Origin: Dipteris shenzhenensis
Taxonomy: Eukaryota
Length of the DNA: 64,000 bases
Strand: one strand, 5' to 3'
Assembly: GCA_047967505.1 (NCBI GenBank)
Contig: CM106538.1
Every line of letters starts with the position of its first letter. Within the stretch, counting starts at the first letter, position 1. Under the pieces are notes generated by a model. The model had not been told where the DNA came from. It saw nothing but the letters and a program-made list of their open reading frames with translations, and did not search any database. The position numbers and the translations under genes are program-made. Positions 3,931 through 61,826 of this stretch are shown here, piece after piece.

Positions 3931-6900
3931 TGTTAGAAAATAGGAGGGAATGAATCACTCAAACCTCCACCCAAGATCTCTCCAACTCTTACACACTCAA
4001 CTCAGATAGATGATCACAGATGCAAGTAACACACACTCAGAAATAAATGTAGACGGAGAGAGAGAGAGTATATTCATCCACCGGATGGTGGGCAGAAAAT
4101 AGCTCCAAGGGAGCAGTACAAAACACAGTAGAGTGCTGGAGAAAACTGATGGACTCTCTCTCTCACAAACTGCCCCAGATCTGAGTGCTGAACACAGCCT
4201 TGGAGAGGGGCTTTCAGTTTGGCACTGGATGCTGGACTGAATGGAGAAGTGGGCCTTTTATAGGCTCTGCCCAGGCCCCTTCAGATGACCGACCAGCAGG
4301 GTCAGTACCCTGTCTGGTGGCCGACCACATGGGCCTCATAAACCGACCAGGGTTGGCCCTGGTCGGTGGCCCTGGTTGGGCCGACTTGGCCAGCCACAGG
4401 TCCTTATATAAGGTCGCCCTGGGCGGCCAGTCAGTGCTGCTCCTCGTGCCTCCATGTGAGGCCTAGAGCCCCTTTTATTCCTGCTGTTGCAGACTGCGAC
4501 CAGCCCGTGTGCTGGTCACCTATATTTGCCATGGTATCCTCCCTCCGGTTCTGGCCTGAGTCTCTCTCCCAGCCCTCCTACCTCTCACTGCCCCTTGTCC
4601 CCTCAAATCGGGGGCTCACAGGTGGGCATAGTGAGAATCTAAAACCCCCCCTCAATGTCACAACTGTGGGCCAATCCCCATACGTCTGATGAGGTGCTCC
4701 ATCTGTTCTCGAGGGAGTGCCTTCGTGAAGAGGTCGGACAAGTTGTCGGCAGTCGGGTAGTACATGAGCTCGATCACGTTGTCAATGATGAGTTCTCGAA
4801 TAAAGTGGTAATGAACTTCAATGTGCTTGGTCCGCGCATGGTCACTGGATTCTTGGCAATGGCTATGCAACTCTGATTGTCGCACATCAGCACTGTTGCG
4901 GTCTCCTGACACACGTCCATGTCCTCCAGAATCCACCTCAACCACAGTGTCTCACAAGCTGCTGTACATGCGGCTCTGTACTTTGCCTCTGTTAATGAAA
5001 GGGCCACTGTGGGTTGCTTCTTACTCAGCCAAGAGATGGCACCAGATGCAAGTAAGAAGCAATACCCTGTTGTTGATCTTTTGGTGTCAGCATCACCCGC
5101 CCAATCACTGTCACAGAACCCGCCTAGTTCGATGCCTTTGGTATAGGTGATCCCATAGGTGCAGGTACCCTTTAGATACCTCAACACCCGTGAACTTGCA
5201 TCCCAATGACTCTTCCTGGGAGAAGCAGAGAACTGGCATAATAGTCCAAGTGCATAACAAATATGAGGTCGAGTATTGGTAAGGTAAAGCAAACTTCCTA
5301 CCAATCGTCGGTACAAAGGAGTATCGACCGGCTGGGATGTGTCGTGAACACTTAGCGACCTCCATGGGAGTTACTGCTATCCTGCAATCCTCCATCTGGA
5401 ATCTCTTCAGAAGTTCTCTGCAATATTTCTCCTGTGAAATGAAGATCTTGTCTTTGGCCTGCTTTACTTCTATCCCAAGGAAGTAGTGTAATAACCCAAG
5501 GTTAGTCATCTCAAACTTAGACATGAGTAGCTCCTTGACCTGAGAAATCTTCTTGACATGGTCGCCTGTCAAGATAAGATCATCAACATAGAGGATGAGT
5601 ACCAATCGCAACCCCTTCTCAATGAACAAGTAGAGGTTTGCCTCAGAAGGGCTCCGACCTAGCCCTATCTTATGAAAGAATACATCAATCCTTTGGTACC
5701 AAGCTCTGGGGGCCTGTTTCAGCCCATATAACGCCTTCTTCAACCTGCAGATTTTTAATGGGGACCCTGGATCTTGAAAGCCCGGTGGCTGCTCTACGTA
5801 TACCTCCTCCTCCAGGGTTCCATTAAGGAATACGGACTTCACGCCCATTTGAAAAATAGGCCACTGGAATTGGGCAGCAAGGGCAATCACTGTCCGGATA
5901 GTAACCATGCGAGCTGTGGGAGCAAAAGTTTCATTAAAATCCATGCCTTCAGTTTGAGCAAAACCTTTGACCACTAACCTTGCTTTGTACTTATCCAAGC
6001 TGCCGTCTGATTTGTATTTAAGTTTGTATACCCACTTAGTGTCGATGACTTTCTGTCGCGGGGGCTTGGCCACTAAGTCCCAGGTATTGTTCTTCAGGAT
6101 AGCATACATCTCTGCCTGCATGGCAGCCTGCAATTCTGGATTGTCCTTCGCCTCCTCGAAGGTCCTTGGCTCTTCAAGCTGAGCCACCAACGCAAGATTG
6201 ACGGATGGGGTCTTCTGAAGAGGTTGGGACCGACGCAATCCAGAACTGCTACTCTCAGGTATTTCGGTGACCCGAGAGTCTTCCAATGTTCTTAGGTACC
6301 ATTTGGGCAACCTCTTCTACTTCTCAGTGGGAGGAGGAACTGAAATCGCTTCTGGAACAGCCTGCTCTTCCTCAGTATGTTGTGGAACATCAGCTTCTGA
6401 TTTCGCCACCTCTTGGATGGTCAACTTGGGGCGGGGTGGGTTCGGGGATTGAACAATCTCCTCCTCCTCAATCTGAGGCTCCTTCTGGGGTTCAGGTTCC
6501 TTTTCCTCGAAGACAACATCCCGACTGATAAGGATCTGCTTCTTTACTGGGTCGAAGAGTCGATAGGCCTTGGATTCTTCGCTATACCTAACAAAGATAC
6601 ATTTTCTGCTCCGGGAATCAAGCTTGGTCCTGTCTTCCTTGTGCACATGCACCCATGCATTAGAACAAAAAATGCGAAGATGAGTCATAGAGGGCTTCTT
6701 ACCATAAAATGCCTCATATGGAGTCTTGTCCTTGACGGCCTTCGTCTTTGTGTACGGCTGTATTGATAGCTTTACTCCAATAGGCTTTAGAAAGGTTCCT
6801 CCCTCGGAGGATAGCAAGCCCTGTCTCCGTGGTGGTCCTATGCTTCCTCTCGGCTACCCCGTTTTGTTGAGAAGTATGTGCTGTGGTGAGTTGTCGCTTG

Positions 6901-8954
6901 ATCCCATGCTTGTGACAAAATGTGTTGAACTCATTTGAGGTGAATTCTCCCCCCCTGTCTGTACGGAACGTCTTGACATCCTCCATTGTCTCCTTTTCAA
7001 CTCTGGCCTTCCAGTCCTTGAACTTCTCGAAAGCGTGTGCCCATGGTTTTGAACCAAGTCTTTCTGTTAGACATGTGCTTTGAAGCACCGCTGTCAACAT
7101 ACCAACCCTCTTTTCCTTCACTGACTGCATAGGCTGAACAATGTTCACTGATTAAAAACAACTGCCCAGTCATCACATTGGCAGAATCATTCTTAGGCTC
7201 TTCTTTGTTCCTGGCTTCTCTCTTCCGCTTCTGATCTGCCTTCTTCTATTGGCATTCTTTGGCGGAGTGGCCAAGCTTTTCACAGTAAAAGCACTTCATT
7301 TTCTTCTTTCGGTCAGCGTACTCTGACTTCTTGAACTCCTTTGGCTTGCCTTTTCCAGGCTTGTCTTTGGCCACTAATGCCTTCTCGTCGGTTTGCGTAA
7401 AGAGTTTCTCTCGAGTCTCCTCCTGAAGCAGGAGTGGGCCAAGCTCCTCAAAAGTGATTGGCTTAGTCCGTTGACCCGTAGTGACCGTAGTCACAAAACT
7501 TTTGAAACTCCGTGGCAACTTGTGGAGTGTGAGCAACGCCAATTGACTCGAGTCCACCTTCTGACCAACCGCTGCGAGCTGGTTCCGCACGACTTTCACC
7601 TTTGTCAGATGGTCATGCACACTATCACCCTCATTCATATCAAGATTATAAAGTTGATGCTGAAGAGTAATGATGCGGGCTGTATTATCGGTTTCATACA
7701 GCTCCTTCAGTATGGCCCATGCCTCTGAAGACGTCTCTGCCAATTGGATATGAGGAATCACAGCATCTGCTGTCGTGCCAATTAGCATTGCTAAGGCTTG
7801 AGCATCCCTCTCCTCCCATGCATTGAGTTCATCCGCATCTGCTTCAAATAAAACATCACCTCTTTTGTCCACAATGTCCTCCGGATTCATCTCGGTACCA
7901 ATCACTATCTTCCATAGCTTGTGCCACCACATGGCTTCGGATCTTGACTTTCCAAATTGGATAGTTCGTCCCATCGAGCTTTCCAACTTCACCAAAATTG
8001 GGAATGAATGAAGAAGGAAGATGACCGGAGGAGGAGGAAGGACGAGCAGTGGGTGTAGAGGCTTCTGAACGCTGATCCATCTCGGTGAATAGCAAACTGA
8101 AAAAAAACTGAAGCAAAAAAGATGTACTGACCTCTCGTGCTAGCCTGAGCTGAAAACAGAATCGCCTTTCTGCCAAGGGACTCCTTCCTTTAGAGAGTGC
8201 TTTGATGAAGAAGAGTTGAGAGCCTATGGCTCTGATACCATGTTAGAAAATAGGAGGGAATGAATCACTCAAACCTCCACCCAAGATCTCTCCAACTTTT
8301 ACACACTCAACTCAGATAGATGATCACAGATGCAAGTAACACACACTCAGAAATAAATGTAGACGGAGAGAGAGAGAGTATATTCATCCACTGGATGGTG
8401 GGCAGAAAATAGCTCCAAGGGAGCAGTACAAAACATAGTAGAGTGCTGGAGAAAACTGATGGACTCTCTCTCTCACAAACTGCCCCAGATCTGAGTGCTG
8501 AACACAGCCTTGGAGAGGGGCTTTCAGTTTGGCACTGGATGCTGGGCTGAATGGAGAAGTGGGCCTTTTATAGGCTCTGCCCAGGCCCCTTCAGATGACC
8601 GACCAGCAGGGTCGGTACCCTGTCTGGTGGCCGACCACATGGGCTTCATAAACCGACCAGGGTTGGCCCTGGTCGGTGGCCCTGATTGGGCCGACTTGGC
8701 CAGCCACAGGCCCTTATATAAGGTCGCCCTGGGCGGCCAGTCAGTGCTGCTCCTGGTGCCTCCATGTGAGGCCTAGAGCCCCTTTTATTCCTGCTGTTGC
8801 AGACTGCGACCAGCCCGTGTGCTGGTTGCCTATATTTGCCATGGTATCCTCCCTCCGGTTCTGGCTTGAGTCTCTCTCCCAGCCCTCCTACCTCTCACTG
8901 CCCCTTGTCCCCTCAAATCGGGGGCTCACAGGTGGACACAGTGAGAATCTAACA
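3931..8954 (-). mobile_element. Copia-1: Ty1/Copia LTR retrotransposon, internally deleted and frameshifted
   Basis: 714-bp LTRs 3931-4644 and 8241-8954 (about 15 differences). PBS GCTCTGATACCA 8229-8240, PPT at 4645-4654, TSD CTCAG/CTTAG. Domain order gag-PR-INT-RT-RH. Confidence 0.95.
4658..8080 (-). pseudogene. Copia-1 gag-pol remnant
   Basis: gag with CFYCEKLGHSAKEC (7246-7995); protease GWYVDSGAS near 7100; integrase RTDRGGEF...QNGVAER (6714-7148); RT YVDD (5111-6310); RNase H GFCDSDWAG...MCDNQS...DLFTK (4658-5316). Split over several frames. Confidence 0.92.
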
Positions 8955-10235: not shown

Positions 10236-11122
10236 ACATTGCTATTTTCAATCTAATGTGTGCATTTGTCCCATGGGCTCGACACTGTCATTATTCCCCA
10301 TCTTCCTTCTCTTCCTTCTCCTCCTTTTCTCCTCTCTCTCAAATGATCACCTTACCATCCCTATATGCAGCCCATTTCCTTGCTTCTCTTGCTGCCATTA
10401 CTCATACCATACCCTCCCTCTGGGGCTCCTGTTGTAGGAGAGTGAGGTCATCATCGAAGTAAATTCGGGTTCCTTTCAGAGTCGCCCTGATGCTCATGAA
10501 GGTCTTCCTGTCCATAGCTGTCCAGAACTTCATCTTTAGTGGCCTTGTAGGTGCCTCGGGTTTGCCCACTCCCCAAGCTGTCTCGCATGTAAGGTTCACA
10601 CCCATTTTGGTGAACAAGCCCTGTGCGTTGCCATAGGGGTGTCTCCCACTGTGAGACCTCGAACCAAAACATTTAGAGCTTTGCTGTTCCTCCTTTTATC
10701 TTCCTCCAAAACATCTTAAATAATCTCTTTCTTGGGGGCAGGTGTGTCTTTTCTTGACAACATCTTTCCATTCTAGGATTGCAGCCTCTCCTTTTGTGAT
10801 CTTTTGTGTGAATTCAATGTGTTTACCTTGCATGGTGTCTTGCAAGGATACCAAATTTTTTCAGAGTTTTTTATTCTCAGATTTCAGCTCTTCCATTACT
10901 TTGTTTGCTCCTTCCGGAGCTCCTTGTGCATCTCTTTGCTGTTGTAGCTCAGTTTCTATGGCTTGCATTTGGTCTTTGAGGCTTTTTTTTTTCTCATTTC
11001 CACATTGCTCTTTCCTTCTCCCACTCCTCTTTCTTGCTCTTCTCCTTCCGCCATTAATCTTGCAAGCGTTTTCTTTGTTTCTTGATGAGAGAGAGAGAGA
11101 GAGACAGAGAGAGAGAGAGAGA

Positions 11123-13360
11123 AGAAAGAAAGAAAGATATATTAACGTCCTCGGAAGACCTCGCGAGTCTATGGGACAGAGTGATACAACATCAAAAAAA
11201 GATCTCAACAAGCCTCTGTGGGCTGGGGCAAGGGGGTGAGCTAAAGCCCCTGCCAAGTACTAATCTAGTGTCTAAATAGAATAGAATAGAGACAAAATCA
11301 GAGTCTGAATCAAGAGTTAGGAGTGTCCAGATCAAGTCAGGTCAGGTCTCTCCGCTGGGCCATGTCAGTACGCGTCGGGCTACGTCGATTGTAATCCCTC
11401 ATCTCTGGCTCTGGTGGTCCCCTACAAGTAGTGCTGTGATGGGACGAACCTCAATGGTGTGCGCTCTAGTAGTCCAAAGAGTCTGGTGTGACCGACTGCT
11501 GATCCAGGCTGCTCTCATGTCGACAATCTCCTCATCCTCAACTCCACTGTGTCCAGGAGCCGTCTCGAAGGCATAGAAGTCTATAACCTGTCTCTGAGCT
11601 GGGCCCAGCTCTGTATCCTGTAGTCTGTCCGGTGCTGATAGTGCTCTAGCCTGTCTCAGTAGTGCCTCTTGGTGTCGGCACATCTCCATCAAGTACAACC
11701 CTACACAGACTTGGTCTTGGAAGTGTATCAACCGAGAGAGCGGGCCGAAGCCGGTCCTCTCCTCATAAAGGCAATGATATCGCCCTCGTATCTCATAGTA
11801 AACCGGGCAGCTACATAGGAAGTGCTCCTCAGTCTCAACGGTATCCATGTCGCATAGTGTGCAGATCCTGTGTTCTCTGGGTAGACCTGCAGCCTGCCTC
11901 AATCCTAAGCTGATGGGAGGAAACTCGTATTTGGCCAATGGCAATCCGGAGTGCATGTGAGACTCCTGTGTCCTCTAGATAAGGAGGTTGGATAATGAAA
12001 CCGTCATCAGAGACTCTGAGGGAGTGATCACGATAGAACTGCATCTTGGTGGGGAGCGGCTGGTCCCTCAACCAAGTTTGGGATGTAGTGAGCTGGAGGA
12101 GGTCTAACCGTATGATACGGTTAATCTCATGGCACGGAACTTGCTCAAGGGGGGCATACATGCTATACTGAAATGGGGGTAGTCTGTCCATCTGAATGCC
12201 ATGGCTAGTCAGCCATGTGTCTGTGCGTGCATACCAGGTGGCTGCTCCCTCACCTGCTAGGCGTCGGGATGATTCCAAAGCTACCCTCGGTAGTCTCCAA
12301 TGAGGCAGAGCCCCTACCCCGTGAATGAAAGTCACTGTCTGGAAGCTAGCATCGACATATATTGGCGTCATGGCAAACTCTGCCTGTATGATCTCATGTG
12401 GAACTGAGGGCTTACTCTGTATCATCCTGGATCCCATTGAGACCTGTAGCCTCTCAAACTTTCTCCAATCTGTTGCCGGAATGTCACTCGACCAGAAGGG
12501 CGTTGTATACATGGCGGTCGGCCGTACTAGAGTGTCGAAGAGCTAGCTCTTTGTTGGAGGATCTTGGAAATGTGCCTAGAAGCACTGTCTCTCTAGTCGG
12601 GCCAAAGCGCTCCGGCCTCGTGTGAGTCGTGCCCTGGCAGGCGGGGTCATTGAGAAAATGGGTCCTGCGAAGACCGTGCCCAAATATGTATAGGATTGTA
12701 CTATCTCCACTGGCTCCCCTCTGTATGTGAAGTTGTGTCGAAGAAGCGCTGGATGTGAGGTATTAAAGATCATGACCTTGGTCTTGCCAAGGTTGACAGT
12801 CAGGTCCCCCTCTCTGCAGAATACCTCAAGGGCGTCCAGATGCTTCTGTAATCCCTCGGCCGATGAAGATAGAAGAACTATGTTGTCGGCATATAGTAAT
12901 ATCTGAATCAGGAGGTCAGCCAATGGTGAGCCCTCTGCACCCAGTGTCTAGGAAGGATGTGATCTCATCGATGTAGAGTCCAAAGAGGGTCAGCGAGAGA
13001 GGGCAACCCTGCTTCACCCCAATTGTGCTCTCAACCTAGTTTGATATACCTCCTGGGGCTCGGACTCTTCCTCTGACCGGCTCATATAGGCTCATAACCC
13101 CCCAAATCAACGTCTCTGGGATCTGTAGCTCGTGCAATCTTGTGATGAGACGGGCTCGTGGGACAGTGTCGAAGGCCTTCCGAAAGTCTACAAAACAAGC
13201 GTATACTTTCCGGTGTCGGGCTTTGGCTTCCTCGATGATGGCGGGTCTCATCGTGAAGATCGGGCCGGAGAAGATGAACCCCAAGTAAGTGTATGAGGAT
13301 ACGATCTCAACTGGTGACCCACCCAAAGTAAAAGTAAACTGTTTCCGTTGCATGAGTAAC

Positions 13361-23530: not shown

Positions 23531-24725
23531 GAAGGAAAGAAAGAAAGATGTATTAATGTCTGCAGGAGGCCTCGCGTGCCTATGAGACAAAAGTGCAAAA
23601 CCAAAAGTAACTCATACAAGCCGCTATGGGCTGAAGCAAAGGGATCACTAAGGCCCTGGCTGAAAGCTAAAGTGCTAAACTAGTGAGCAAGTGCTCAGAG
23701 CTAATGCTCCTAGTACACACCTACGCTCCATATATCCAAGTACCCTGGTGGCTCTCTGATGGGATGTGAGGAGCTCTCGTATATCTGTCTGTCGAGCTAT
23801 GTCTTGAAGTGGCGGAGGGCATGGTCTCTGTATTCGATGGGCTACAATCAAGGGTGATGCCTTGGTCTTTGGCGGTCTCCTCTGAGGAGGACTGAAATAG
23901 ACCGGACCTCAATCGTGCGTGCTTTGGTCACTCCCCGTGCTGCATGTGGTCTGTGTGCCTCTCGTTTGGCAACATCGTGGGGGTGGCTCTCACTGCTAAT
24001 CCAGATGCTCTCATCTCATCAAGCTCCTCTCCCTCAGCCTCTCCCGTAGCTGACTCAGCTGCAGAGAAGTCTGTAACATGTGTCCGTGCTCGATCGATCT
24101 CGGTGACATGTGGCATCGCCTCTTGCTGCTCTCTGGTTTGTCGCATTAGTATGTCTCTCAGATGCGACAATTAGATAGAGCCCAACTCAAACCTGGTCAG
24201 GAAAATGGATCAGCCGTGTAAGCGGACCAAAGCCATGCCCCTCCTGAAAGAGGCAGTGATATCACCCTCGGATCTCATAATAGGTTGGGCAGACACATAG
24301 AAAGTGCTCCTCTTTCTCGACCTCCCCCATCGGGCATAGTCTGCAGATCCTCTGCTCGCTGGGTATGCCTGTAGCTCTTCTTGCCTCAACTCAGCTGATG
24401 TGAATACTCTGAGACCCTCAAAAAGTGGTCATGGTAGAAGTGGATCTTGGTGGGGAATTCCTCTCCCTCCCAAGCCCTAGATGTATGAAGCTAGAGGAGG
24501 TCCAAGCGTATGATACGGTTGATCTCATCCCGTGGGATCATCTTAGATGGTGCATCCATGCTGTACTGAAAGGGGGGAAGTCGGTTCATTTGAATGCCGT
24601 GACTACCAAACCATGTGGATACCCATGCGTACCATGCTGTATCAACACCGCTCTCTGCCAATCGCATGGAGGACTCCAATACTAGCCTCGGTAATCTCCA
24701 CTGGGGTAGGGCCCATACTTTGTGT
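23531..24725 (-). mobile_element. LINE-d: 5'-truncated RTEX-like LINE 3' end, same family as LINE-b
   Basis: ORF 24491-24679 (HGIQMNRLPPFQYSM...INRIIRLDLL) is homologous to LINE-b. Zn finger ICRLCP..EVEKEEHFLCVCP near 24280-24350. Hairpin 23558-23588 and (CTTT)n tail. Confidence 0.85.
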
Positions 24726-36797: not shown

Positions 36798-39700
36798 TCA
36801 TCCTAATCCCATGATGTGGCGGCAATGTGCAAACCGCTCTGTAGGCAAGCTCTTAGTGAGCAAATCTGCAGGATTATCATCAGTATGCACTTTCACAAGC
36901 TCAAGTCGCTTGTCTTCCAGTACCTCCCTGATGAAATGATATTTCACTTCTATGTGCTTGGTCTTCTGATGAAAGACCGGATTCTTTGCCAACATGATAG
37001 CACTCTGACTATCACAATGCAAAACTGGCATATCTCCTGTAATGCCCAAATCTCCCACCAGCCGAGTAAGCCATATTGCTTCCTTGCAGGCCTCAGTGGC
37101 TGCAACATATTCAGCTTCTGTGGTTGACAGTGCAACGCATTTCTGCAACCGAGACACCCAAGATATAGCACCTCCTGCAAATGTGAAAATATAACCGGTA
37201 GTAGACTTCCGGTTATCTGCATTCCCTGCATAGTTTGAATCTGTAAAACCATGCACCAATGCATCCTGCCTACCATAGCATATGCACAAGTCTTTGGTAC
37301 CTTTGAGATACCTCAAGACACCTTTCACTGCTTCCCAATGCCGCTTGCCTGGATTTGCCATATACCTGCTGATGACTGCCACCGCAAAAGCAATATCCGG
37401 ATGAGTGGCAACCATGGCATACATCAAAGATCCAACTGCAGATGCATACAGAACCTTGGCCATTTCAGCCTTATCATCATCTGATCTGGGGTTGTCCTTA
37501 CTGCTGAGTTTTAAATGTGGAGGCAACGGGGTACTAATGGACTTCCCCCCCTCCATTTTAAACCTCTGCAGTACTTTGTCAATGTACTCTTTCTGTGACA
37601 GAAACAAAAGTCCCTTGGACCTGTCACGAGTAATACGCATGCCAAGAATATGATTTGCATCACCCAAGTCTTTCATGTCAAAAGACTTATGCAGTTGTTT
37701 CTTCAAAGCACTAATCTCATGCTGAGATTTACTGGCAATAAGCATGTCATCCACATATAGAATGAGTATCATCAAACTGCCATCCTTTGCCCGTTTGGTG
37801 TATAAGCAATGATCGGTCTCACACCGATGATACCCTTGGGACTGCATGAAGGCATCAAACTTCTTGTACCATTCCCTTGGCGCCTGCTTGAGTCCATACA
37901 AGCTCCTCTTGAGCTTACACACAAGCTGTTCTTTCCCTTTAACAGCATATCCCTCTGGCTGACTCATATAGATCTCATCATGAAGATCTCCGTGAAGAAA
38001 GGCTGTCTTCACATCCATCTGACATAAATCCATGTCGTCATGAGCAACAAGAGCTAACACTGCTCTCAAAGTAGTCATCTTGACTACCGGAGAAAAGATC
38101 TCATCAAAGTCAATGCCCTTCTCCTGCTTAAATCCCTTGGCAACGAATCTGGCCTTATACCGAGGTAAAGCATTTGAATCCACTTTGACTTTGTAAACCC
38201 ACTTGCATGGCAAAACCTTTCTGCCTGCAGGTAGCTGCACCAAGTCCCATGTATCATTCTGAAGTAGGGAGTCCATTTCTGACTGCATGGCTTTCTCCCA
38301 CTTCTTTTTCTCTGTTCTTCCCATAGCTTCCTTGAAGCTGGAAGGCTCACCACAATCTGTCAGCATGATAAAATCAGCCACATTATTGGCTCCTGGTACA
38401 AACCTGGCAGGAGGCCGTTGTGCACGGGTGCTCCTCCTAACAAAATGTTCCGGATTAGGCTGCTGTCCAGCCTGTTCTTCATGCATGACGGGTGGCTGTA
38501 CCACCATATCTGGCTGTTCTATAGCCCCATCTGTTGGTATATCCAGTGGTACATCATTGGCAAAATTATCTGGCTGATTTCCAGCCTGTATACCCTCTTG
38601 AACAGGGTGATCTGCAGCAGCCTGCTGCTGCATATAAATGGGCATTCTTTGCTGTCCAACATCATCATAAATAACCCTCCTGTATTCTACAGGTTGCACG
38701 GGTTCCTTGTGTACACTATCTTCTTTAAATATGACATCATTGCTGCGTATAATCTTCCGTTTAACGGGATCCCATAACCTGTACCCCATTTCACCTTCGT
38801 CACCATAACCCATAAAGATGCATCTGATAGACTTTGGATCCAGTTTGGTGCATAGTTCTTTGCGTACATGAGCAAAGCACTCGCAGCCAAATACACGTAA
38901 GTGCTTATATGAGGGTGGCTTGCCAGACCACACCTCCTCTGGCACTTTCAATTCCAAAGCCTTATTTGGTGACCTGTTAATAATGTGAACTGCTGTTTGC
39001 ACGGCTTCTGCCCAAAAGCCATGGGGTAATGCAGCATAAGACAACATACATCGAACCTTCTCTTGAATAGTTCGATTCATCCGCTCACTTGCACCATTTT
39101 GAGATGCATTATGAGGGGCTGTGAGTTCCTGTTTGATGCCCTTAGCTTGGCAAAACTGCACAAAAGCATGTGACACATACTCACCCCCATTATCAGATCT
39201 GAGGCATTTCAGCCTACGACCTGTCCGATTCTCAACCTGAGCGACAAACTTCTTGAAAGCATCTAAGGCATCTCCCTTATGCTTCAAGAAATAGACCCAC
39301 ACCTTACGTGTGGCATCATCAATGAAAGTAATAAAATATTTTGCACCCCCTAGTGATAACTGTGGCATCTCACACAAATCAGTGTGCACTAGATCAAGTG
39401 GTGCTCTATTCTGGGGAGTTCTCCTCTTATGAGGAGTGACAGAGTGCTTGCCAAAAATACAATGATCACAAGTAGGCAAATCTGAAAAAGAGAGAGGCGG
39501 CAGATAACCCAAACGTGACAGTTCTTGCATTCCTTTAACAGACATGTGTCCCAACCGGCTATGCCACAATGAAACCTTTGGCAGCTCGGTTATGGCAACA
39601 ACATGATTACCCACACTGGAAACATAAAGAGGGTACAAGGTATCACTCTTAAAACCCTCAGCCACTACAGTCTGGCCATCAGTAATCACCCATTTGGAAT

Positions 39701-40907
39701 CCCCAAATGTGGTGTGGTAACCACTGTCATCCAATAAGCCAGTTCTAATCAGATTTTTCTTGATTTGCGGCACATGGCGAACACCATCAAGCATAAATGA
39801 CTGTCCATCAGGAAATACTATCTGTATACTGCCAATCCCTGCAATCTGACATGCATAGTTGTTCCCAAGATGAACAACTCCATGAGTACCTGTGTAGGAA
39901 GTAAACCACTCCCTATGAGGAGTAACATGAAAAGAGGCACCTGAATCCAAGAGCCAGGTGTGCATGTCATGGCCGTCAATAACCAAAGCATGTGCTATTA
40001 CAGCAGAAGAGCATAAAACATCATGTATGTCACTGTCACTGTCCTCTGCTGCAACATTCACTGCATCCAAGTCATCTGCCTTGGCCTTGCCTTTGCCTTT
40101 GCTTGCATTTCCTGCATCCTTTGTTTCAGCCTTCTTGGCTTTCTGATCCCGTATGAACTTGAAGCACTTCGACTTCACATGTCCCTTCTTGCCACAATAA
40201 AAGCATTCAATGTCCTTTTTGCCACGGGACTGACTGCGGGATTTGGACTTACTAGCAGATCTCCCCTTCTGCTGAGTCCTGCCTCTGTCCTGTACCTGCA
40301 AAGCATTTGAAGACTTGCTGCCCGCATTATTCTTCCTGCTCATCTCCTCCATAAGGAGAGAGCTCTCTACATCAGCATAAATAAGAGTGGCATTCGAGTT
40401 TGACATGGTGGTCTTGAAAGTGTCCCAACTCTCGGGGAGGGTACACAGCAAGAAAGTAGCCTTGAACTCCTCATCAAGGTTCAACCCCTGTGCAATCAGC
40501 TGTGTAAAGATAGCATTGAACTCACTCAAGTGTGAGGTCATAGCTGTACCTTCCTTCATGCGAAGATCGACCAGCTTCTTCAGCCAATAAACCTTACTGG
40601 CTGAGCTCTTTTGGGCATACAATTCTTCTAGTCTTTGCCATAGACCATAAGAGGTCTTTTCAGCCTGTACATTGAACACAAGAGTGTCTGAAATAGTGAG
40701 CATGATAGCTGCCCTCGCGGACAAATCAAGCTCTTCCCAGTCATCAGCTGCCATGTCAGATGGCTTGACACCCTTCACCCTTATGGGCTTAGCAATCTTC
40801 TTTAACAGAAGTACATTCAAGCACTGTTCTGCCCATAATGCATAGTTGTGTGCTCCTTCCAGTTTCTTTATGTTCAGAATTGAGGAATCACTTCCCCCTG
40901 ATGCCAT
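36798..40907 (-). CDS. Intact Copia gag-pol polyprotein (1369 aa)
   Basis: Single ORF: CFYCGKKGHVKSKC, WLLDSGAS, LWHSRLGH..C..C, VHTD/SDNGGEY/SERMNRT, YVDD, and RNase H FTDS/EAEY/HCDSQS/PADLLTK. Confidence 0.96.
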   Translation of the reverse strand: MASGGSDSSILNIKKLEGAHNYALWAEQCLNVLLLKKIAKPIRVKGVKPSDMAADDWEELDLSARAAIMLTISDTLVFNVQAEKTSYGLWQRLEELYAQKSSASKVYWLKKLVDLRMKEGTAMTSHLSEFNAIFTQLIAQGLNLDEEFKATFLLCTLPESWDTFKTTMSNSNATLIYADVESSLLMEEMSRKNNAGSKSSNALQVQDRGRTQQKGRSASKSKSRSQSRGKKDIECFYCGKKGHVKSKCFKFIRDQKAKKAETKDAGNASKGKGKAKADDLDAVNVAAEDSDSDIHDVLCSSAVIAHALVIDGHDMHTWLLDSGASFHVTPHREWFTSYTGTHGVVHLGNNYACQIAGIGSIQIVFPDGQSFMLDGVRHVPQIKKNLIRTGLLDDSGYHTTFGDSKWVITDGQTVVAEGFKSDTLYPLYVSSVGNHVVAITELPKVSLWHSRLGHMSVKGMQELSRLGYLPPLSFSDLPTCDHCIFGKHSVTPHKRRTPQNRAPLDLVHTDLCEMPQLSLGGAKYFITFIDDATRKVWVYFLKHKGDALDAFKKFVAQVENRTGRRLKCLRSDNGGEYVSHAFVQFCQAKGIKQELTAPHNASQNGASERMNRTIQEKVRCMLSYAALPHGFWAEAVQTAVHIINRSPNKALELKVPEEVWSGKPPSYKHLRVFGCECFAHVRKELCTKLDPKSIRCIFMGYGDEGEMGYRLWDPVKRKIIRSNDVIFKEDSVHKEPVQPVEYRRVIYDDVGQQRMPIYMQQQAAADHPVQEGIQAGNQPDNFANDVPLDIPTDGAIEQPDMVVQPPVMHEEQAGQQPNPEHFVRRSTRAQRPPARFVPGANNVADFIMLTDCGEPSSFKEAMGRTEKKKWEKAMQSEMDSLLQNDTWDLVQLPAGRKVLPCKWVYKVKVDSNALPRYKARFVAKGFKQEKGIDFDEIFSPVVKMTTLRAVLALVAHDDMDLCQMDVKTAFLHGDLHDEIYMSQPEGYAVKGKEQLVCKLKRSLYGLKQAPREWYKKFDAFMQSQGYHRCETDHCLYTKRAKDGSLMILILYVDDMLIASKSQHEISALKKQLHKSFDMKDLGDANHILGMRITRDRSKGLLFLSQKEYIDKVLQRFKMEGGKSISTPLPPHLKLSSKDNPRSDDDKAEMAKVLYASAVGSLMYAMVATHPDIAFAVAVISRYMANPGKRHWEAVKGVLRYLKGTKDLCICYGRQDALVHGFTDSNYAGNADNRKSTTGYIFTFAGGAISWVSRLQKCVALSTTEAEYVAATEACKEAIWLTRLVGDLGITGDMPVLHCDSQSAIMLAKNPVFHQKTKHIEVKYHFIREVLEDKRLELVKVHTDDNPADLLTKSLPTERFAHCRHIMGLG

Positions 40908-41409
40908 ATCAGATGAGGAAAGTACCTGACTCCCTGGAAGTAAAAAAGACTGAATAAAAAAAAATTCTGATTTCTCAGAAAAAAAAACCTGCCCTATTCA
41001 AGAGCCAGAAGCACTCTCAATGGTGCTGTTTTTACTGTCAGTAAAATCTGCAGCAAAACAGTAAATGACCCTGCAAGTACTGTACCTTCTGACACACTGT
41101 TCTGAGCTCAAAGAGGCATAAAAACAGTAATTTCAGACTGCTGCAGCTGCTCAACAAGTGCTTAACAGTGCATAATCATCTGACAAAACCACCAACACTG
41201 CTGTAAACAATGCTGTACTGACTGTACCGATCACTTCTCCCACCTCAGATGAGGGATGGCACTGAGTTAAATTGCAGAAACCACTTGACAAACACCCAAA
41301 AAAAAACAGTAAATGACCCTTCAGCCTGTCACAAAACCTGCAACAGTAAATGGGATAAATCCCAAGCAATCACCCTTATACCAAGGGGAGAAAATGCATC
41401 TGAAGATCT

Positions 41410-55170: not shown

Positions 55171-57549
55171 ACAAAGTGCAATCCCAAACTGAAAATGCAC
55201 AACCCAAATCTGAAATAGCACACCCATGAGCTCAAATGCATCCAATGGAGCTCAAAGGCATCCACAACTATAAAGTAACTGCAAATGCATCCAACAATGC
55301 AGGGTATTTGCAAATGCACTTGAGAGTGCAAGAGTATGGGCTACAAAAATAGTCCCGAAGCGAAATACACAACTCAAAACACTTACTAAAAGTGCACCTT
55401 GGCGAAAACCACCTACAAAATAGTCCGCTGGCTATGTGGGCAAGCTGGAGATGACAAAGGAGCTAAAGTGAGCTGCTTGGAGCTGAATGAAGCTGTCACC
55501 GTTAGAACACTGTATTTACAAATTGACACAATTCAGTGTACTGACACTCTGACACAATTTTCTATACTAGGGAATACCTGCAATCCCACATGCACACTGA
55601 CTAGGCATTTGACACATGCATAACCCAAATAGCGCTTTTCCCCTATACTAGGGAAGCTCCCGCAAAACTCTGATTGAAACACACAGGCATAGCCTCAAGC
55701 ATAATCTGTCCCTGCTATAGCATCGTAAACTGCAAACAGTGCTACAACCACAAAAGCCTAATTTGTTTATGACAAAACAGGAATGACAGAACAAAAGGGA
55801 AAATGAGTAAAGTACTCCCTGGTCTTGTTCGCTCCTCTTTTTTCTCTGTCAAGGCGTAACTCTATGTTCGAAATCTGTCTGAGCCTACAAGCTGTCTGCG
55901 TGGCCTTGGAGGGCTCTGACTGTAAGTCCGCCAGGGAAGCAGGTCGACATCTATTTCAGACTAGTTAGCCACGTAACACCTCGAAGGTCTTCATTCCGTC
56001 GTAAACCACGGGCAGCGCCAACACCTTGCTCACGGGCTATTCCATGACCACGTCCAAACCCACGAATTGCTTCGAAGGTCTCCCGTAATACGAGCTCACC
56101 CACCACGCTATCCCTAGGCCTTGCTGTTCGTCATTAGATCATTCGTAATTCATGAACCATCCTTGCGGGACCCGTTCAATCCACGCATCGCTTAATTACC
56201 AAAGATTTCACCTAATACACTGCAAGCTCTTGCTAGCCAACACGGGAATACCACCAAACAGATACGTCGTTCCTCGTCAGGCCTGCGCTCCAATCTGCTG
56301 TCCGCTCCAAGATCAAAGACACGTTCGTCATTGCACGACAGCTACCCGCTCACGATGCCTTTCACGTCCCATCCAATCACTGCCTGTCTCGCAAGTCTTT
56401 CACCCAACCTCTCGTTCAACCTGAGGGCTCTGATACCAATTGTTAACTACCTTCTCTGTTTCCTACTGCAGATCACGGGAGTAGCACCGATATTATTCCA
56501 CCCAGCCTTTCTTGCTGAAACGTGAGAGCTAGCTGAGAATCAGAAATTCCAAAAATCACGTAAAAAGCACCATCTCCTTCTCTCACTAGCTCCAGCATGC
56601 CCCAATCTCCCTAGATGGATCTAGATGCCACATGTTATCATTATAGGGCCTTACTAATGCAACATTTCACCCCTCTCTTGGGATGCTTTAATTTTCTTTG
56701 CCCCTAGGCACATTTCATGCATTAGGCCCTTAGCCTTAGATCCACCTAGTCTGGTGCTATCAACCCTCACCTAGGACCTTGACATTAATTCCCTCCCGAT
56801 CATTTACATAAAGCACAAACAAATATATTACAACCATAGATCCTTTAAGGGAAATGTCGACTGATTCTTCCGAGGTCATGCTACCTCGGCTAGAGCGTAA
56901 CAGGCCCAGAGGTTCAGTTCTTAGAGAGCCGATGGGAGCAAGTCTCGTTCCTAGGTGCTAGGTCTGATCCTGGATTGAGTCGCGGACGTGCGCCTGCATC
57001 ATAGCGTAGCCCAAGGCTTAGCAGTAGATCCCAGGCTTTGTAGCGCCACCTGGTGGTATGGGATACTAGGCTGGTTAGGATCTGGTTGGGAGTTCATGCC
57101 AGTAGCTCAGCTCGTGGCTCGGAGGGGACACCTCTTGATTCGGGATCGCATCCCGTAGATGTCATGGTTGGGTGGTGAGCAGCCTACTCAGTTTCTTCAC
57201 GTTTGGTGTGTTCTTGTGTTTGCTTGCAGGTCAGAGGTTTCAGGAGTGCTGGGGTCGTGTCAGTTGGTATCAGAGCCAACTCCTGAGGTAGGAACTTCTG
57301 TTGCGAGAATTTTGGACGATTTTTTTCCTCCAGGTATGCCCTAATTTCGAAATTCATGTTTATTACCCTGCAAGTGCCTTATGGTTCATCGTTAAGGGTG
57401 GTGGTTAGATGGAGAGAAGAAGAAGAAGAAGAAGAATATATTATCGTCCTCTGAAGACCAAAACCGGCCTATGGGACCTGGGCAATACAATATCACAAGT
57501 ACATGAAAGCTCCTCCCGAAGATGGGAGGGTGGAAAGAGAAACCACCTT

Positions 57550-60500
57550 CTAGGATTCAGGTGGATTCCTATGCTTGAAGAGCTTATACACAAATGTTCC
57601 TAAAGCTGAAGGTGACCCTTTATGCAGCAAATCAGCCAGTTTGTTATGTCCCTCAAGGAGGTGATTGAACTCTTCCCTAATGTGTGCATAGTGAGGGCAT
57701 ATCATTACCATGTGTTCTTCTGTTTCAACCATACCTTGATCACATAGTTGGCATATTCTACTCTCCCTTGGCATCTTTTTCCATCCCCCTGTTTCTATTT
57801 GCAGCTGGTGTGATCGGGTGCGAAGTGAGGCTAAAGCCCTCCGTTTATGCACTGCTATAGGTGTACATATGTACTTCTGCGTTGTTGTCTCCCTTCCTGT
57901 ATAAATTGACCAATATTCGGGGTTGATATATGTGCGATAGTACTCAAATTTATCTTTGTTTTCTGCTGTTTGCCATTTCCTGTGTAGTGCATTCAGCAGG
58001 TCATAATGAAAAGCCTCTTCATCAATCTCCTCTGAAGAGTAGTTTAAATACTCTTCTACTTCCCACTTCTTGAACCATTTTTTTAGGTCCTGTGCCCATC
58101 CGGATGTCAAAATCTTGCCCTTGTTTGTCTTTTGAAGCTTCTGACTTTCATTCCATGCTCTCTTTGGTAGCATTTCATTATCCATGCACTTGACCTTTGT
58201 GATGTATCTGAGTACTCTCTTCAGAGCATGTAGCTCTATGGGTATACATCCTGTCTCTAGGAGTAACAAAGAGTATGGTGTAGTAGCCTTGATGCCCAGG
58301 TGCCTCCTAATGAAAGACTTTTGCATTTTCTCTATCTCATTCCACGTTGATGGAGATATACTCCCACCCCATACCTCTACTCCGTAGAGTACTGTCTGTA
58401 TCACATATGCCCCAAAGATCATATTTCGTACTTGCCACCTTCTCGTATTGCTATTGTTGCACTTATTTTCAAATTGGAAGTATTTTTCCCATCCTGCATC
58501 AAGTCTCCGTTGCACACAGCTGTTCCATCTATTATTGGCGGGGATTTCAATACCCAAGTATTTGAATGAGTGCACTGTCTCAATGGGTTGTCCTTTATAT
58601 AAGATTTGGAGGGGGCTGCTTGGCTGTATAGTCTTGACTATCATGAGTTTAGTTTTGTTGACATTAATAGCCATCCCACTCTCTGCACAAAATATGCTGA
58701 AGATATCCATCATTTTTTGCATCTTACTTTCACTATCAGTGAAAACAACCACATCATCTGCGTAAAGAAGCAACCAAATCACGAGACCTGCTAGATGAGG
58801 GCTGTATAACTCATCTTTACATGCTTCTTCATTCACCAACTCCTCAAGTCTATCAATGCATAGGCCGAACAAAGTGGGTGAGAGCGGACATCCTTGTTTT
58901 ACCCCCATATTACTATAGAACTCTTGTGACATCCCATCCTTACATTTTAGTTGACATTTTACTTTCTCATAAAGTCTAAAGACAGCAAACCTTATTTCCT
59001 CGGGCACCCCTATGCATTCCATTCTCTCCCATAGCACATCCCTAGGCACTGTATCAAATGCCTTCTTAAAGTCAATGAAACAACAGAAGAGTGGCTTCCT
59101 CTTGAGGCGGCTTTCCTCCATCAAAACTCGAAGAGTGACTAGGTGATCCACTGTACAGTGTTTTGGTCTGAAACCAGCTTGTCCCATTGCTCTTTTATTT
59201 TCTTTCTCTGCCCAAGCACTCAATTTTGCCTCTACTATTGTGCTATATAGTTTGGCTAGAGTGGAACATACCATAATTGTTCTGTAATTTGTTAATTGAT
59301 TGCGGTCACCCCCTTTGTAGATTGGTTTGATCCAATTCTCTTGCCATTCTGTTGGGAAACCATGCATCAAAGCCTGATTTAGTGCCATTGCTATGTGCCT
59401 TTGCGTGTGCTCATTGGTCCACTTAATGAGTTCAGCCACTAGGTGTAGAGTGTCTGCTGCCTTTCCATTTACCATTTTCTTGAGGCCATCTTGTACATCT
59501 TTCAATGAGAAAAGACCCTGAGTATTACTGCTGAGAGGTATGCTCACCATGGGCCGAGCCTTGGGATGTGTGTAGAGCTGTTGAGCATATTCCAGCATCT
59601 GTGTTTCTGTAAAATCTCCCATAATGTCATTTGACCTTTGTTTAATCCCTTTCCATGCTCTTCTAGGATGCTTGATAAAATCAATTGCATCAGTCCATTC
59701 CTTGTTCACAATATGTGCACGTCTTTTTTTACGTGTAAGTGCATGGAGCTGTTTCTCAGCTGCTCTTTTCTCATCCCCCATTGGGATCCCCTTTAGTGCA
59801 TTCCTAGCTGCCTTGCACTCAGCATCAAACCAAACATTGTATGGTAGCCCTTTCTTGCATTCTTTATTGCTCTTTTTGTACCCCAAAACTGACTTGGCTG
59901 TAGTGAGAATAGCATTTTTCAATTCTGTCCACCCAATTTTCTGTTTTCCCAGCAGACACGTCTCTAGAGTTTCAGCGTACTCCACCTTCTTTGCCTCATT
60001 TATATGATAGTTGCCTTCAACTGTTTTGCGCTCTTCTAAAGTTGCCTTGGCAAGTAATATATTAAGCTCCACATATAGTGGTGTGTGATCTGAATCAGGG
60101 GACTTTGAGCCAAGTGAGAAATTGTGAATGAGATGGCAAGCTTCCAAACCAATCAATGCATAGTCGATCACACTAGCCCCTCCACTGGCAGGGAAACAAG
60201 TAGGGGTATTTGATTTTGGGAAAAGGGCTGTGCCATTCACCACCAACATGTGCATTCCATTCATCAATTGCTCCAATGCCCTACCATGTGCATTCACTTC
60301 CTTATCCTTCGAGCATCTACACCAAATGGGGTCAATGTCTATCTCATGTTCCTTGATGTATTCTTGCTGAGTGGGATAGTGAAACTGTAGATCTCCTATC
60401 CGTGCATTGAAATCACCAATGAGCAAAACATTTCCTTTTTTGTTGAACATAGCTATATCCAAGCACAGGTCTCCAAGTGGCTGGGTTGGGTCAACCTCAT

Positions 60501-60855
60501 GTCTTTGGTAGAAGGGAGATTCTCTATGAGGAATGTAGCACCCTGCAATGTAAAGTGGTGAGTGCATTCCTTTTACCATGATCCATATGAAGCGTTTGTG
60601 GATGTCATCTTTGGCTATGGAAATCATGTCTTGTATATGCTCCTTGTATATGCATGCTACCCCTCCTTGCCCTCGTAGGCCAACTTGCTTTTGCCAGATG
60701 GAGTGCACCACGTATCCATTAATTTTAGGAATTCTGCATATGTCCCTTTCCCAAGTCTCTGCGAGAAAAATAATGTCTGCATCATGCATAACTTCATTCA
60801 ATCCAGCCCCTTTATGCCAAGGGAAACCTCTACAATTCCAAAACATGATCTTCAA
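57550..60855 (-). CDS. LINE ORF2: APE endonuclease, reverse transcriptase, C-terminal CCHC Zn finger (1101 aa from TTG)
   Basis: WNCRG, LAETW, IGDFNA, IDY, SDH; QAGFR, FIDFKKAFD, GVKQGCPLSP, YADD, YLG; HQLQIETG..RICQLC..ETEEH..CP. Confidence 0.95.
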   Translation of the reverse strand: MKIMFWNCRGFPWHKGAGLNEVMHDADIIFLAETWERDICRIPKINGYVVHSIWQKQVGLRGQGGVACIYKEHIQDMISIAKDDIHKRFIWIMVKGMHSPLYIAGCYIPHRESPFYQRHEVDPTQPLGDLCLDIAMFNKKGNVLLIGDFNARIGDLQFHYPTQQEYIKEHEIDIDPIWCRCSKDKEVNAHGRALEQLMNGMHMLVVNGTALFPKSNTPTCFPASGGASVIDYALIGLEACHLIHNFSLGSKSPDSDHTPLYVELNILLAKATLEERKTVEGNYHINEAKKVEYAETLETCLLGKQKIGWTELKNAILTTAKSVLGYKKSNKECKKGLPYNVWFDAECKAARNALKGIPMGDEKRAAEKQLHALTRKKRRAHIVNKEWTDAIDFIKHPRRAWKGIKQRSNDIMGDFTETQMLEYAQQLYTHPKARPMVSIPLSSNTQGLFSLKDVQDGLKKMVNGKAADTLHLVAELIKWTNEHTQRHIAMALNQALMHGFPTEWQENWIKPIYKGGDRNQLTNYRTIMVCSTLAKLYSTIVEAKLSAWAEKENKRAMGQAGFRPKHCTVDHLVTLRVLMEESRLKRKPLFCCFIDFKKAFDTVPRDVLWERMECIGVPEEIRFAVFRLYEKVKCQLKCKDGMSQEFYSNMGVKQGCPLSPTLFGLCIDRLEELVNEEACKDELYSPHLAGLVIWLLLYADDVVVFTDSESKMQKMMDIFSIFCAESGMAINVNKTKLMIVKTIQPSSPLQILYKGQPIETVHSFKYLGIEIPANNRWNSCVQRRLDAGWEKYFQFENKCNNSNTRRWQVRNMIFGAYVIQTVLYGVEVWGGSISPSTWNEIEKMQKSFIRRHLGIKATTPYSLLLLETGCIPIELHALKRVLRYITKVKCMDNEMLPKRAWNESQKLQKTNKGKILTSGWAQDLKKWFKKWEVEEYLNYSSEEIDEEAFHYDLLNALHRKWQTAENKDKFEYYRTYINPEYWSIYTGRETTTQKYICTPIAVHKRRALASLRTRSHQLQIETGGWKKMPRESRICQLCDQGMVETEEHMVMICPHYAHIREEFNHLLEGHNKLADLLHKGSPSALGTFVYKLFKHRNPPES

Positions 60856-60885
60856 CTTCTTTTGGGTTCCATAGGCCGCGTGTTC

Positions 60886-61764
60886 CTAGAGGGCCTGTTC
60901 AGCTCCTTGCTCTTTTTTTTTGATTCGGGCCTCATACATACGTCTCCTTTCTTCTTGCTGCTTGGGGGTGCGGTCTTCTGTCACGTAGAAAGATGTTCCC
61001 TTTAAGTAAATCTTGCTGCTGTCCAAAATGATTTCTCTCTTGCGCGGGTCAAGCATGGTGCAAACAATTGCTCGCTGACTCGAATTTTCATCTCTCTTTC
61101 TCCCTACTCTGTGTGCCCCAAAGACCACAACCTCTTGCATGGCAAAGTGCTCCACAAAAAAGTCCCCTACATCCTTTGCAAGTGAGAGGGGTGTTTCCTT
61201 TTCTTTTTCTACTAGACCTCGTATGACAATGTTCTGTGATCTTTTTTCTCTCTCTCTATACTCATCAACATCTATCTTATCTTCTGATTTTTCCCCCTTG
61301 TCTAGATGTGCATCTGGCGAGGCATGTCCATTTACTATATTTGCCCATGTCACTGAGGTGTTTGTCTGTGGCTTGCATTCTATTTGAGGGTGTGGTGCCG
61401 TATTTTCTTTCATCTTTTCCAAAGTCTGTTCCAGCTCACATAATTTTTCCTCTTGATTGATATTTTTTTCCTCCAAACTGTTTATGGAGCTCTCTTGTAT
61501 GGCCACCTTTTGCTCCAAATCTTTATTTCTGTACTGTAAGTGTTGGCACTTCAAAGAGAGTGCATGTATCTCTTGCTGTTGGCGATCCAATGTGCTTTGC
61601 AGAGCTGTTAGAAACGCCCAAATTTCAGATTCATTAGGAAAATTGTCTATTGTAGCTCCTTGCACTGACATGAGCGGGGCTGCTAAAATGTTTCCTTGAA
61701 CAGGAATAAAAGGGACTACTTGTCCATCTAAAATGGTGGGGGGTGGCTCATCTCCGACTGTCAT
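60886..61764 (-). CDS. LINE ORF1: coiled coil plus RRM/CTD-type nucleic-acid chaperone (292 aa)
   Basis: Heptad-rich segment, then REKRSQNIVIRGLVE...AHRVG...LKGTSFYVTEDRT. Homologous to LINE-a ORF1. Confidence 0.88.
   Translation of the reverse strand: MTVGDEPPPTILDGQVVPFIPVQGNILAAPLMSVQGATIDNFPNESEIWAFLTALQSTLDRQQQEIHALSLKCQHLQYRNKDLEQKVAIQESSINSLEEKNINQEEKLCELEQTLEKMKENTAPHPQIECKPQTNTSVTWANIVNGHASPDAHLDKGEKSEDKIDVDEYREREKRSQNIVIRGLVEKEKETPLSLAKDVGDFFVEHFAMQEVVVFGAHRVGRKRDENSSQRAIVCTMLDPRKREIILDSSKIYLKGTSFYVTEDRTPKQQEERRRMYEARIKKKEQGAEQAL

Positions 61765-61768
<4 letters not shown>

Positions 61769-61826
<58 letters not shown>
61769..61826. repeat. (GA)n/(CT)n microsatellite in the LINE-e 5' UTR
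   Basis: About 29 perfect AG units immediately upstream of the ORF1 ATG. Confidence 0.95.

Follow-up and report, generated by a model that had tools for sequence, protein, structure and literature searches.

How long interspersed nuclear elements (LINEs) make little, controlled ORF2 protein (ORF2p) from a bicistronic RNA, and why ORF2p favours its own RNA, are long-standing questions. Both bear on LINE-e, an intact element on the minus strand of a 64,000-nt stretch of contig CM106538.1 of Dipteris shenzhenensis (hereafter the window, to which all plain coordinates refer). A preliminary description of this window had noticed that the RNA just after the stop codon of the first open reading frame (ORF1) is the reverse complement of one arm of a hairpin at the 3′ end of the element, and had proposed a long-range switch that licenses ORF2 synthesis. 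We followed up this proposal computationally in LINE-e and its relatives. ORF1 and ORF2 turned out to share one reading frame, with a single stop codon in a leaky-looking context between them, and we lean towards the reading that this stop is subject to programmed readthrough, yielding an ORF1-ORF2 fusion, which would be stimulated or gated by a duplex spanning ∼3.4 kb and excluding the 3′ hairpin.

Judged by its sequence, LINE-e is a non-long-terminal-repeat (non-LTR) retrotransposon of the apurinic/apyrimidinic endonuclease (APE) type, that is, a LINE with endonuclease and reverse transcriptase (RT) in ORF2, an upstream ORF1 and a simple-repeat tail. ORF2 matched the Pfam families Exo_endo_phos (5.9e-07) and RVT_1 (1.9e-37), and its nearest solved structures are the RTs of R2 and of LINE-1 ORF2p. 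No Pfam family and no PDB match were obtained for ORF1. The two ORFs are adjacent stop-to-stop frames, continuous apart from one stop. The stop-proximal element lies 7 nt 3′ of this stop and its partner arm ∼3.4 kb further 3′, in a 3′ untranslated region (3′ UTR) of 113 nt (57549-57437) that carries the hairpin near its end, 9 nt before the (UUC)7 tail. The features of LINE-e are the following:

60886-61764, minus strand: ORF1, of the coiled-coil type, 292 codons from its first AUG, ending in UAG
60886-60888 (read 60888-60886), minus strand: in-frame stop codon UAG between ORF1 and ORF2, followed by G; candidate readthrough site
60847-60885, minus strand: spacer of 39 nt, open in the ORF1/ORF2 frame, 13 codons ahead of the ORF2 AUG
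60865-60878, minus strand: stop-proximal element, spanning +11 to +24 relative to the stop and able to pair with the 3′ arm
60870-60872, minus strand: AUG in the +1 frame at +17, inside the duplex, opening a 6-codon mini-ORF
57550-60846, minus strand: ORF2, AP endonuclease and RT, 1098 codons from its AUG
57465-57478, minus strand: distal element, which supplies the 5′ strand to each stem of the 3′-terminal hairpin
57446-57477, minus strand: 3′-terminal hairpin, with an outer stem of 4-5 bp, an internal loop and an inner stem of 5 bp
57415-57436, minus strand: (UUC)7 microsatellite tail

One reading frame across one stop codon

Of the 19 relatives that LINE-e ORF2 had in a large protein collection, four are close; among metagenome contigs, a scan gave 21 loci. 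One of these, L001, is a full-length copy of a different family (∼46% amino-acid identity). Further ORF1/ORF2 junctions are carried by L007, L009 and L013, and further 3′ ends by L002 (twice), L003 and L004. Since L009 and L003 share a 680-nt overlap at 91.6% identity, they represent one family whose two ends lie on overlapping contigs. Both ends could thus be seen in the same copy for LINE-e and L001, and in the same family for L009/L003. The C-terminal region of ORF1 is conserved between LINE-e and L001, L007, L009 and L013, and the tails of the relatives are (CAAAU)n, (CUAU)n or (CUUU)n. The scan of viral contigs gave no relatives, and that of genome contigs only distant LINEs with 23-34% identity.

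All five readable junctions (LINE-e, L001, L007, L009 and L013) have ORF1 and ORF2 in the same frame, with a single stop between them and a spacer free of further in-frame stops. The conserved W-N-C codons of the endonuclease are reached 42 or 45 nt after the stop, and these two distances differ by exactly one codon (3 nt). Only LINE-e (codon 14) and L009 (codon 3) have an in-frame AUG ahead of the endonuclease domain; in L001, L007 and L013 no in-frame AUG follows the stop before codon 64, which lies 49 codons into that domain and past the conserved E-T-W. A relative among the Logan contigs, P0004, likewise lacks the methionine that LINE-e has before F-W-N-C. None of these junctions shows a stop-start overlap of the UAAUG type, the hallmark of SART1-type termination-reinitiation. 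Being in frame, without overlap and mostly without an ORF2 AUG, the junctions point to readthrough and fusion and not to restart.

The six available spacers, which include that of the degenerate copy LINE-a, fall into three stop contexts of two members each: UGACGG (L001, L013), UGACAG (L007, LINE-a) and UAGGAA (LINE-e, L009). UGACGG is a listed type II readthrough hexanucleotide; UGACAG and UAGGAA agree with listed motifs only in the stop and the +4 base. Between stop and complementary motif the spacers align without gaps, and in all six the core starts at +14 and an AUG at +17. The duplex described below starts at +12 in L001, L007 and L013, at +11 in LINE-e and at +10 in L009 and LINE-a.

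The +17 AUG lies in the +1 frame, inside the duplex, and opens a mini-ORF of 6-8 codons in 6/6 spacers (LINE-e, LINE-a, L001, L007, L009 and L013), ending 6-9 nt before the W-N-C codons. The preliminary description had noted that the duplex buries this AUG and had proposed a switch that licenses ORF2 synthesis. With the two ORFs in frame across a stop in a leaky-looking context, licensing would most likely consist of readthrough stimulation and not of AUG masking.

Read data were available as Logan contigs of four runs, from four coded organisms, covering LINE-e-like copies. Two groups of contigs in run X3 (25 and 8) follow ORF2 as far as its first codon and diverge immediately upstream of it, and in both groups the loose-end consensus contains the spacer core found in L001 and LINE-a. 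At consensus level only, this shows the spacer motif conserved in further subfamilies. Among the differences listed, none falls inside either 14-mer, which we do not take as invariance. At position 57481 (plus strand), three bases upstream of the arm, the window has G and all four runs compared have A, so that the G looks like a private change of the window copy or strain.

A junction of similar layout was observed in a more remote, GC-rich LINE, L024, whose ORF2 is only 23% identical and whose ORF1 and ORF2 lie in one frame across a single UAG-G (1190-1192 of L024). Its tail is (ATCT)n, and the best partners of its spacer are local, with none at the 3′ end. The contig is labelled as a cyanobacterial metagenome-assembled genome and is evidently eukaryotic contamination of a bacterial bin. 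In-frame junctions of the readthrough type may be wider in L024's part of the LINE tree. In L022, an unrelated LINE, the ORFs are in different frames and the spacer has no partner at the 3′ end.

Complementarity between the junction and the 3′ hairpin

The two 14-mers singled out in the preliminary description lie on the minus strand at 60878-60865 and 57478-57465, and 13 of their 14 positions form Watson-Crick pairs, the other being A•C. Counted in the same fixed register, L001 pairs with itself at 12/12 contiguous positions, and L009 with L003 at 13/14 core positions plus two to four flanking pairs. With an L001-type arm, assumed as their partner, L007 forms 13 contiguous pairs and L013 also 13, including one U•G. 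Three other copies in the window bear on the same sites:

10267-10290, minus strand: LINE-a junction, UGA (10290-10288, with an extra UAA before it) and a stop-proximal element at +10
11138-11181, minus strand: 3′ hairpin of LINE-b, with its arm at 11178-11164; a (CUUU)n(CU)n tail comes next and abuts LINE-a
23549-23592, minus strand: LINE-d 3′ hairpin, whose outer stem has U-A replacing C-G

LINE-a is degenerate beyond the first ORF2 codons. The pairing of its spacer (10281-10267) with the LINE-b arm (11178-11164) holds at 12/14 core positions plus one flanking pair, a comparison between different copies in which the partner is assumed; that with the LINE-d arm is looser, as had been noted, with 11 Watson-Crick pairs and one G•U.

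Covariation was judged among the three verified pairs (LINE-e, L001 and L009/L003). Three positions are changed on both sides: +11, which is C-G in LINE-e and U-A in L009/L003; +13, which is G-C in LINE-e and A-U in the two others; and +16, which is U-A in LINE-e and L009/L003 and C-G in L001. The LINE-a/LINE-b pair, joining different copies, adds A-U at +12 and G-C at +11. The arm base facing +16 also covaries with its local partner in the hairpin (A-U versus G-C), giving a three-way covariation. Because +16 covaries in both helices, the spacer mimics the 3′ strand of the hairpin; such a pattern would be expected if selection acted on two helices that exclude each other.

The 3′ ends of LINE-e, LINE-b, LINE-d and five metagenomic relatives align as one hairpin (8/8 ends), with an outer and an inner stem separated by an internal loop in which CAU is invariant, and placed just before the tandem-repeat tail in every case. 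Three of its 10 predicted pairs have both sides changed. A covariance model of this hairpin had exactly eight matches in 133,405 bases, all of them training sequences, with LINE-e at 52 bits. Since one model finds all eight ends, those of LINE-e and of LINE-b and LINE-d are homologous. This qualifies the earlier claim of two divergent families in which the partner sequences change together: complementarity is kept, while the partners change, in each family of which both ends could be seen, and the two cases are not independent. No Rfam family matched the hairpin, the only two matches being at chance level and elsewhere in the element (E 2.6 and 4.2). "Stringent" LINE RTs with microsatellite tails, such as those of eel UnaL2 and the L2/CR1 groups, recognise a 3′ stem-loop, and a conserved hairpin immediately before a short tandem-repeat tail is also what we observed. 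We know of no description in which the 3′ hairpin of a stringent LINE pairs with the ORF1/ORF2 junction.

Folded alone, the hairpins have energies of −9 to −15 kcal/mol, the local value for LINE-e being −13.5. The long-range duplex is favoured over the separately folded spacer and hairpin by 12.4, 16.7 and 10.2 kcal/mol, figures that exclude the loop-closing entropy of 3.4 kb. Since the arm is the 5′ strand of both stems, and two-strand folding with the spacer opens the hairpin, the mutual exclusivity postulated in the preliminary description was borne out in silico. RNAalifold predicted no conserved local structure for the spacer motif, which stayed unpaired within ∼100 nt, and folds of single sequences paired it with different partners in each family. 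A local partner ∼80 nt downstream, at the G-x-G-L codons, was considered and rejected: its register differs between families and only a CC/GG pair is common to them.

The frequency of such complementarity by chance was estimated with 1000 mononucleotide shuffles of each spacer against its own 3′ UTR (the L009 spacer against the L003 3′ UTR). The observed duplex energy was reached by 23/1000 shuffles for LINE-e, 4/1000 for L001 and 5/1000 for L009/L003, and the observed perfect run (10 nt in LINE-e) by 5/1000, 0/1000 and 2/1000, respectively. When the 30 nt following the stop were scanned without bias against all 40-nt windows along the element, the 3′ arm ranked first in LINE-e (−25.3 kcal/mol, next site −17.9, 864 windows) and in L001 (−31.7 kcal/mol, next site −21.7, 878 windows).

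Further copies and neighbouring elements

Several of these LINEs stand head to tail. In the window, the microsatellite tail of LINE-b runs straight into the 5′ region of LINE-a (11050-11181, minus strand); in L002 (2094-2350) two 3′ ends stand in tandem with only (CAAAT)n between them; and in L024 (5380-5511) the 3′ UTR is repeated after the (ATCT)n tail. It may be that these LINEs prefer their own microsatellite tails as insertion sites. The AUG of LINE-e ORF1 is preceded, at a distance of 4 nt, by a perfect (CT)29 tract (61769-61826), and LINE-a ORF1 by a similar (CT)n; the tract could be a microsatellite that served as target or could belong to a very short 5′ UTR.

Two elements of other kinds were observed. 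Direct repeats of 300 nt each, at 3931-4230 and 8241-8540, lie 4310 nt apart with 99% identity. They resemble LTRs and would belong to a young LTR retrotransposon inserted beside a LINE endonuclease fragment (3552-3822). On the minus strand, 36798-40997 is an uninterrupted frame of 1399 codons for a Ty1/copia-type polyprotein. Its named relatives are only from angiosperms (36-56% identity), the best-scoring ones being Tnt1-like (44-46%), and its best relative without a name is 60% identical. The host therefore seems to belong to a plant lineage from which few named sequences are available.

Proposed readthrough, known systems and alternatives

According to the mechanism that we propose, a ribosome arriving at the ORF1 stop would encounter first a leaky context and then, 10-12 nt further on, a stable duplex. 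The stimulator would be a duplex of 12-15 bp between the RNA from +10/+12 to +24 and the 5′ strand of the 3′ hairpin, and not a local hairpin. A fraction of the ribosomes would read through and make an ORF1-ORF2 fusion, giving a low ORF2:ORF1 ratio as in Gag-Pol fusions. Duplex and hairpin being mutually exclusive, the pair would act as a switch. An RNA without its 3′ end could not form the stimulator, which would amount to quality control, and a ribosome that reads through would melt the duplex and free the arm to refold into the 3′ hairpin. The refolded hairpin, the presumed recognition site of the RT, would then lie beside the nascent ORF2 part, which would favour action in cis. Four steps are inferred from the arrangement described above: ribosomes read through the stop, the duplex exists in vivo, it stimulates the readthrough, and the RT binds the hairpin.

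The closest known system is a tombusvirus, Carnation Italian ringspot virus (CIRV). There, readthrough into the RNA-dependent RNA polymerase (RdRp) requires pairing over ∼3.5 kb between a proximal and a distal readthrough element (PRTE and DRTE). The DRTE is part of a replication structure at the 3′ terminus whose alternative folds exclude each other (Cimino et al. 2011, PMC3234231). The preliminary description had already drawn a tombusvirid analogy, and it proved closer than was held then, since ORF1 and ORF2 are in frame across one stop in a leaky-looking context. Both systems have an in-frame stop before the polymerase ORF, leaky in CIRV and leaky-looking in the LINE, and a stop-proximal sequence complementary to the extreme 3′-end structure; in both the distal partner is the polymerase's own recognition or replication element (presumably so in the LINE) and takes part in exclusive alternative folds; and the same gains have been proposed, namely removal of truncated RNAs, preferential action in cis and coordination between translation and copying. 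They differ in that the PRTE is described as a 6-nt bulge in an extended local stem-loop, whereas the LINE would form a linear duplex of 12-15 bp with no conserved local stem-loop predicted. They also differ in that one is a viral genome with an RdRp and the other a nuclear retrotransposon mRNA with an RT. The CIRV case is proven experimentally, and the LINE case is proposed from sequence. That a LINE lineage has independently evolved the tombusvirus solution, making its RT only as a readthrough fusion and only when the 3′ hairpin reaches back 3.4 kb, stands for us in the balance.

The stop contexts lead to a wider set of viruses. In the Beier-Grimm classes, UGACGG is type II, of which the viral examples Venezuelan equine encephalitis virus (VEEV) and Colorado tick fever virus (CTFV) need a downstream structure from +12. 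UAG-G is type III, which generally needs a downstream element, such as the pseudoknot of Moloney murine leukaemia virus (MoMLV; UAGGGA, an 8-nt spacer, then the pseudoknot) or the long-distance pairing of CIRV (PMC13517186). By comparison, two of the five intact junctions have UGACGG (L001 and L013) and two have UAG-G, the structure would start at +10 to +12, and the proposed product is likewise a Gag-Pol-like fusion at a low ratio. In contrast to VEEV, CTFV and MoMLV, whose stimulator is a local stem-loop or pseudoknot, the partner strand in the LINE lies 3.4 kb downstream.

Among LINEs, reviews describe UAAUG coupling in SART1, where RNA structure near the junction matters, and unconventional termination/reinitiation in human L1; they give frameshifting for HeT-A and call the mode of TART ORF2 expression unknown (PMC5009743, PMC5972666). 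The elements studied here resemble SART1 and human L1 in that a bicistronic LINE RNA needs a non-canonical route to a little ORF2 protein. They differ from both in having ORFs in frame with one stop, no overlap and mostly no ORF2 AUG. The view that no such interaction had been described for LINEs held in a full-text search covering articles outside subscription, without supplements, which gave neither LINE readthrough nor a long-range RNA interaction in a LINE. For the Arabidopsis LINE Ta11-1, a stop separating the two ORFs in frame was reportedly noted in 1996; our search returned nothing relevant to it. Readthrough dependent on long-range RNA pairing is a kind already known; its proposed setting in a cellular retrotransposon would be new.

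Several points weigh against readthrough stimulated by the duplex. All the evidence is computational and comes from few lineages; only two same-copy pairs and one same-family pair are available, the remaining partners (L002/L004-type arms for L007 and L013, LINE-b or LINE-d arms for LINE-a) being assumed. Covariation is confined to three positions; the core does not vary and is largely palindromic in L001-type elements (CCCAUGG G), so that part of the complementarity is uninformative. LINE-e and L009/L003 each carry their one A•C mismatch, and with only one G•U pair (L013) wobbles cannot separate pairing in the sense RNA from pairing in the minus strand. An unconstrained RNAduplex matrix gave no clean preference for cognate arms (the LINE-e spacer reached −25.3 kcal/mol with its own arm and −25.8 with one of the L002 arms, L002a), for which reason pair counts in a fixed register were used instead. 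The unrelated L022 reached an equally low energy in the scan, −25.8, at an internal, non-homologous site, so that energy alone is not decisive. Unlike in CIRV, no extended local stem-loop holds the proximal element, and UAGGAA and UGACAG are absent from the listed canonical readthrough hexanucleotides. LINE-e has its own AUG just ahead of the endonuclease domain, at which internal initiation is possible. Finally, no natural ORF1-ORF2 fusion was found among the longer proteins sought with an ORF1 query, which is weak evidence. The weight of the argument, as far as sequence comparison carries it, is placed on contiguous duplexes that recur at homologous sites with changed sequence, and not on energies.

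It is conceivable, and in our judgement unlikely without being negligible, that the pairing is selected for something other than readthrough: it might circularise or compact the RNA for ribonucleoprotein assembly and cis preference, hide the hairpin from the RT until the RNA has been translated, or mask the +1-frame AUG, and any readthrough would then rest on the stop context alone. Covariation and mutual exclusivity would be equally expected, the invariant +17 AUG lies inside the duplex in 6/6 spacers, and type II contexts can be leaky by themselves in some systems (PMC13517186). What speaks for stimulation of readthrough is that the duplex starts at +10 to +12 in every family, where known stimulators begin (PMC13517186); pure circularisation would need no such start position. 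The +17 AUG also matters to a route that we rate as quite improbable, in which ORF2 is translated by termination-reinitiation or by relay through the 6-8-codon mini-ORF and the shared frame is incidental. The position of the mini-ORF in 6/6 spacers, ending so shortly before W-N-C, would suit it, as would the unconventional termination/reinitiation reported for human L1 ORF2 (PMC5972666). Such a route would leave aside the shared frame in 5/5 junctions, the length difference that is a multiple of 3 and the open spacer frame; moreover, three to four of the five junctions have no AUG at the ORF2 start, and there is no overlap of stop and start.

On the opposite strand, too, the two sites are complementary, and the complementarity might act in minus-strand complementary DNA or in an antisense transcript, for instance in second-strand priming or template jumping. 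The A•C mismatches of LINE-e and L009/L003 would there become G•T wobbles; conversely, the G•U of L013 would become a C•A mismatch, and the fixed spacing from the stop, the conservation of frame and the leaky-looking stop contexts would be left without a reason, which makes this explanation very improbable to us. Coincidence is the alternative to which we give least credence. It would combine a Kozak-like CCAUGG in the spacer with a protein-binding hairpin loop, both partly palindromic, and no pairing at all. The invariant core, near-palindromic in L001-type elements, the mere three covarying positions, the modest energy statistics of LINE-e (23/1000) and the similar energy found elsewhere in the control LINE count in its favour. 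The core, however, is not palindromic in LINE-e and L009/L003, and the spacer is the complement of the arm and not a copy of it. The flanks differ by family and yet stay complementary (CGG/CCG; AUGA/UCAU; GA/UC; and CGAG/CUCG between LINE-a and LINE-b), and perfect runs of 10-13 bp recur at homologous sites.

If duplex-stimulated readthrough is the right reading, a single RNA duplex would provide the ORF1:ORF2 ratio, the proof that the RNA is full-length and the cis preference. Both the programmed readthrough and the functional long-range RNA-RNA interaction would then be firsts among described LINEs. The system is compact, comprising one stop codon, a proximal site of 14 nt and a hairpin of 32 nt, and suits reporter assays. 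It would mean convergence of a nuclear retrotransposon with plus-strand RNA viruses and would add a cellular example of a recoding signal known so far from viruses. To the questions of ORF2 dosage and cis preference in LINEs, this clade offers a concrete mechanism that would link the two and that mutations can test.

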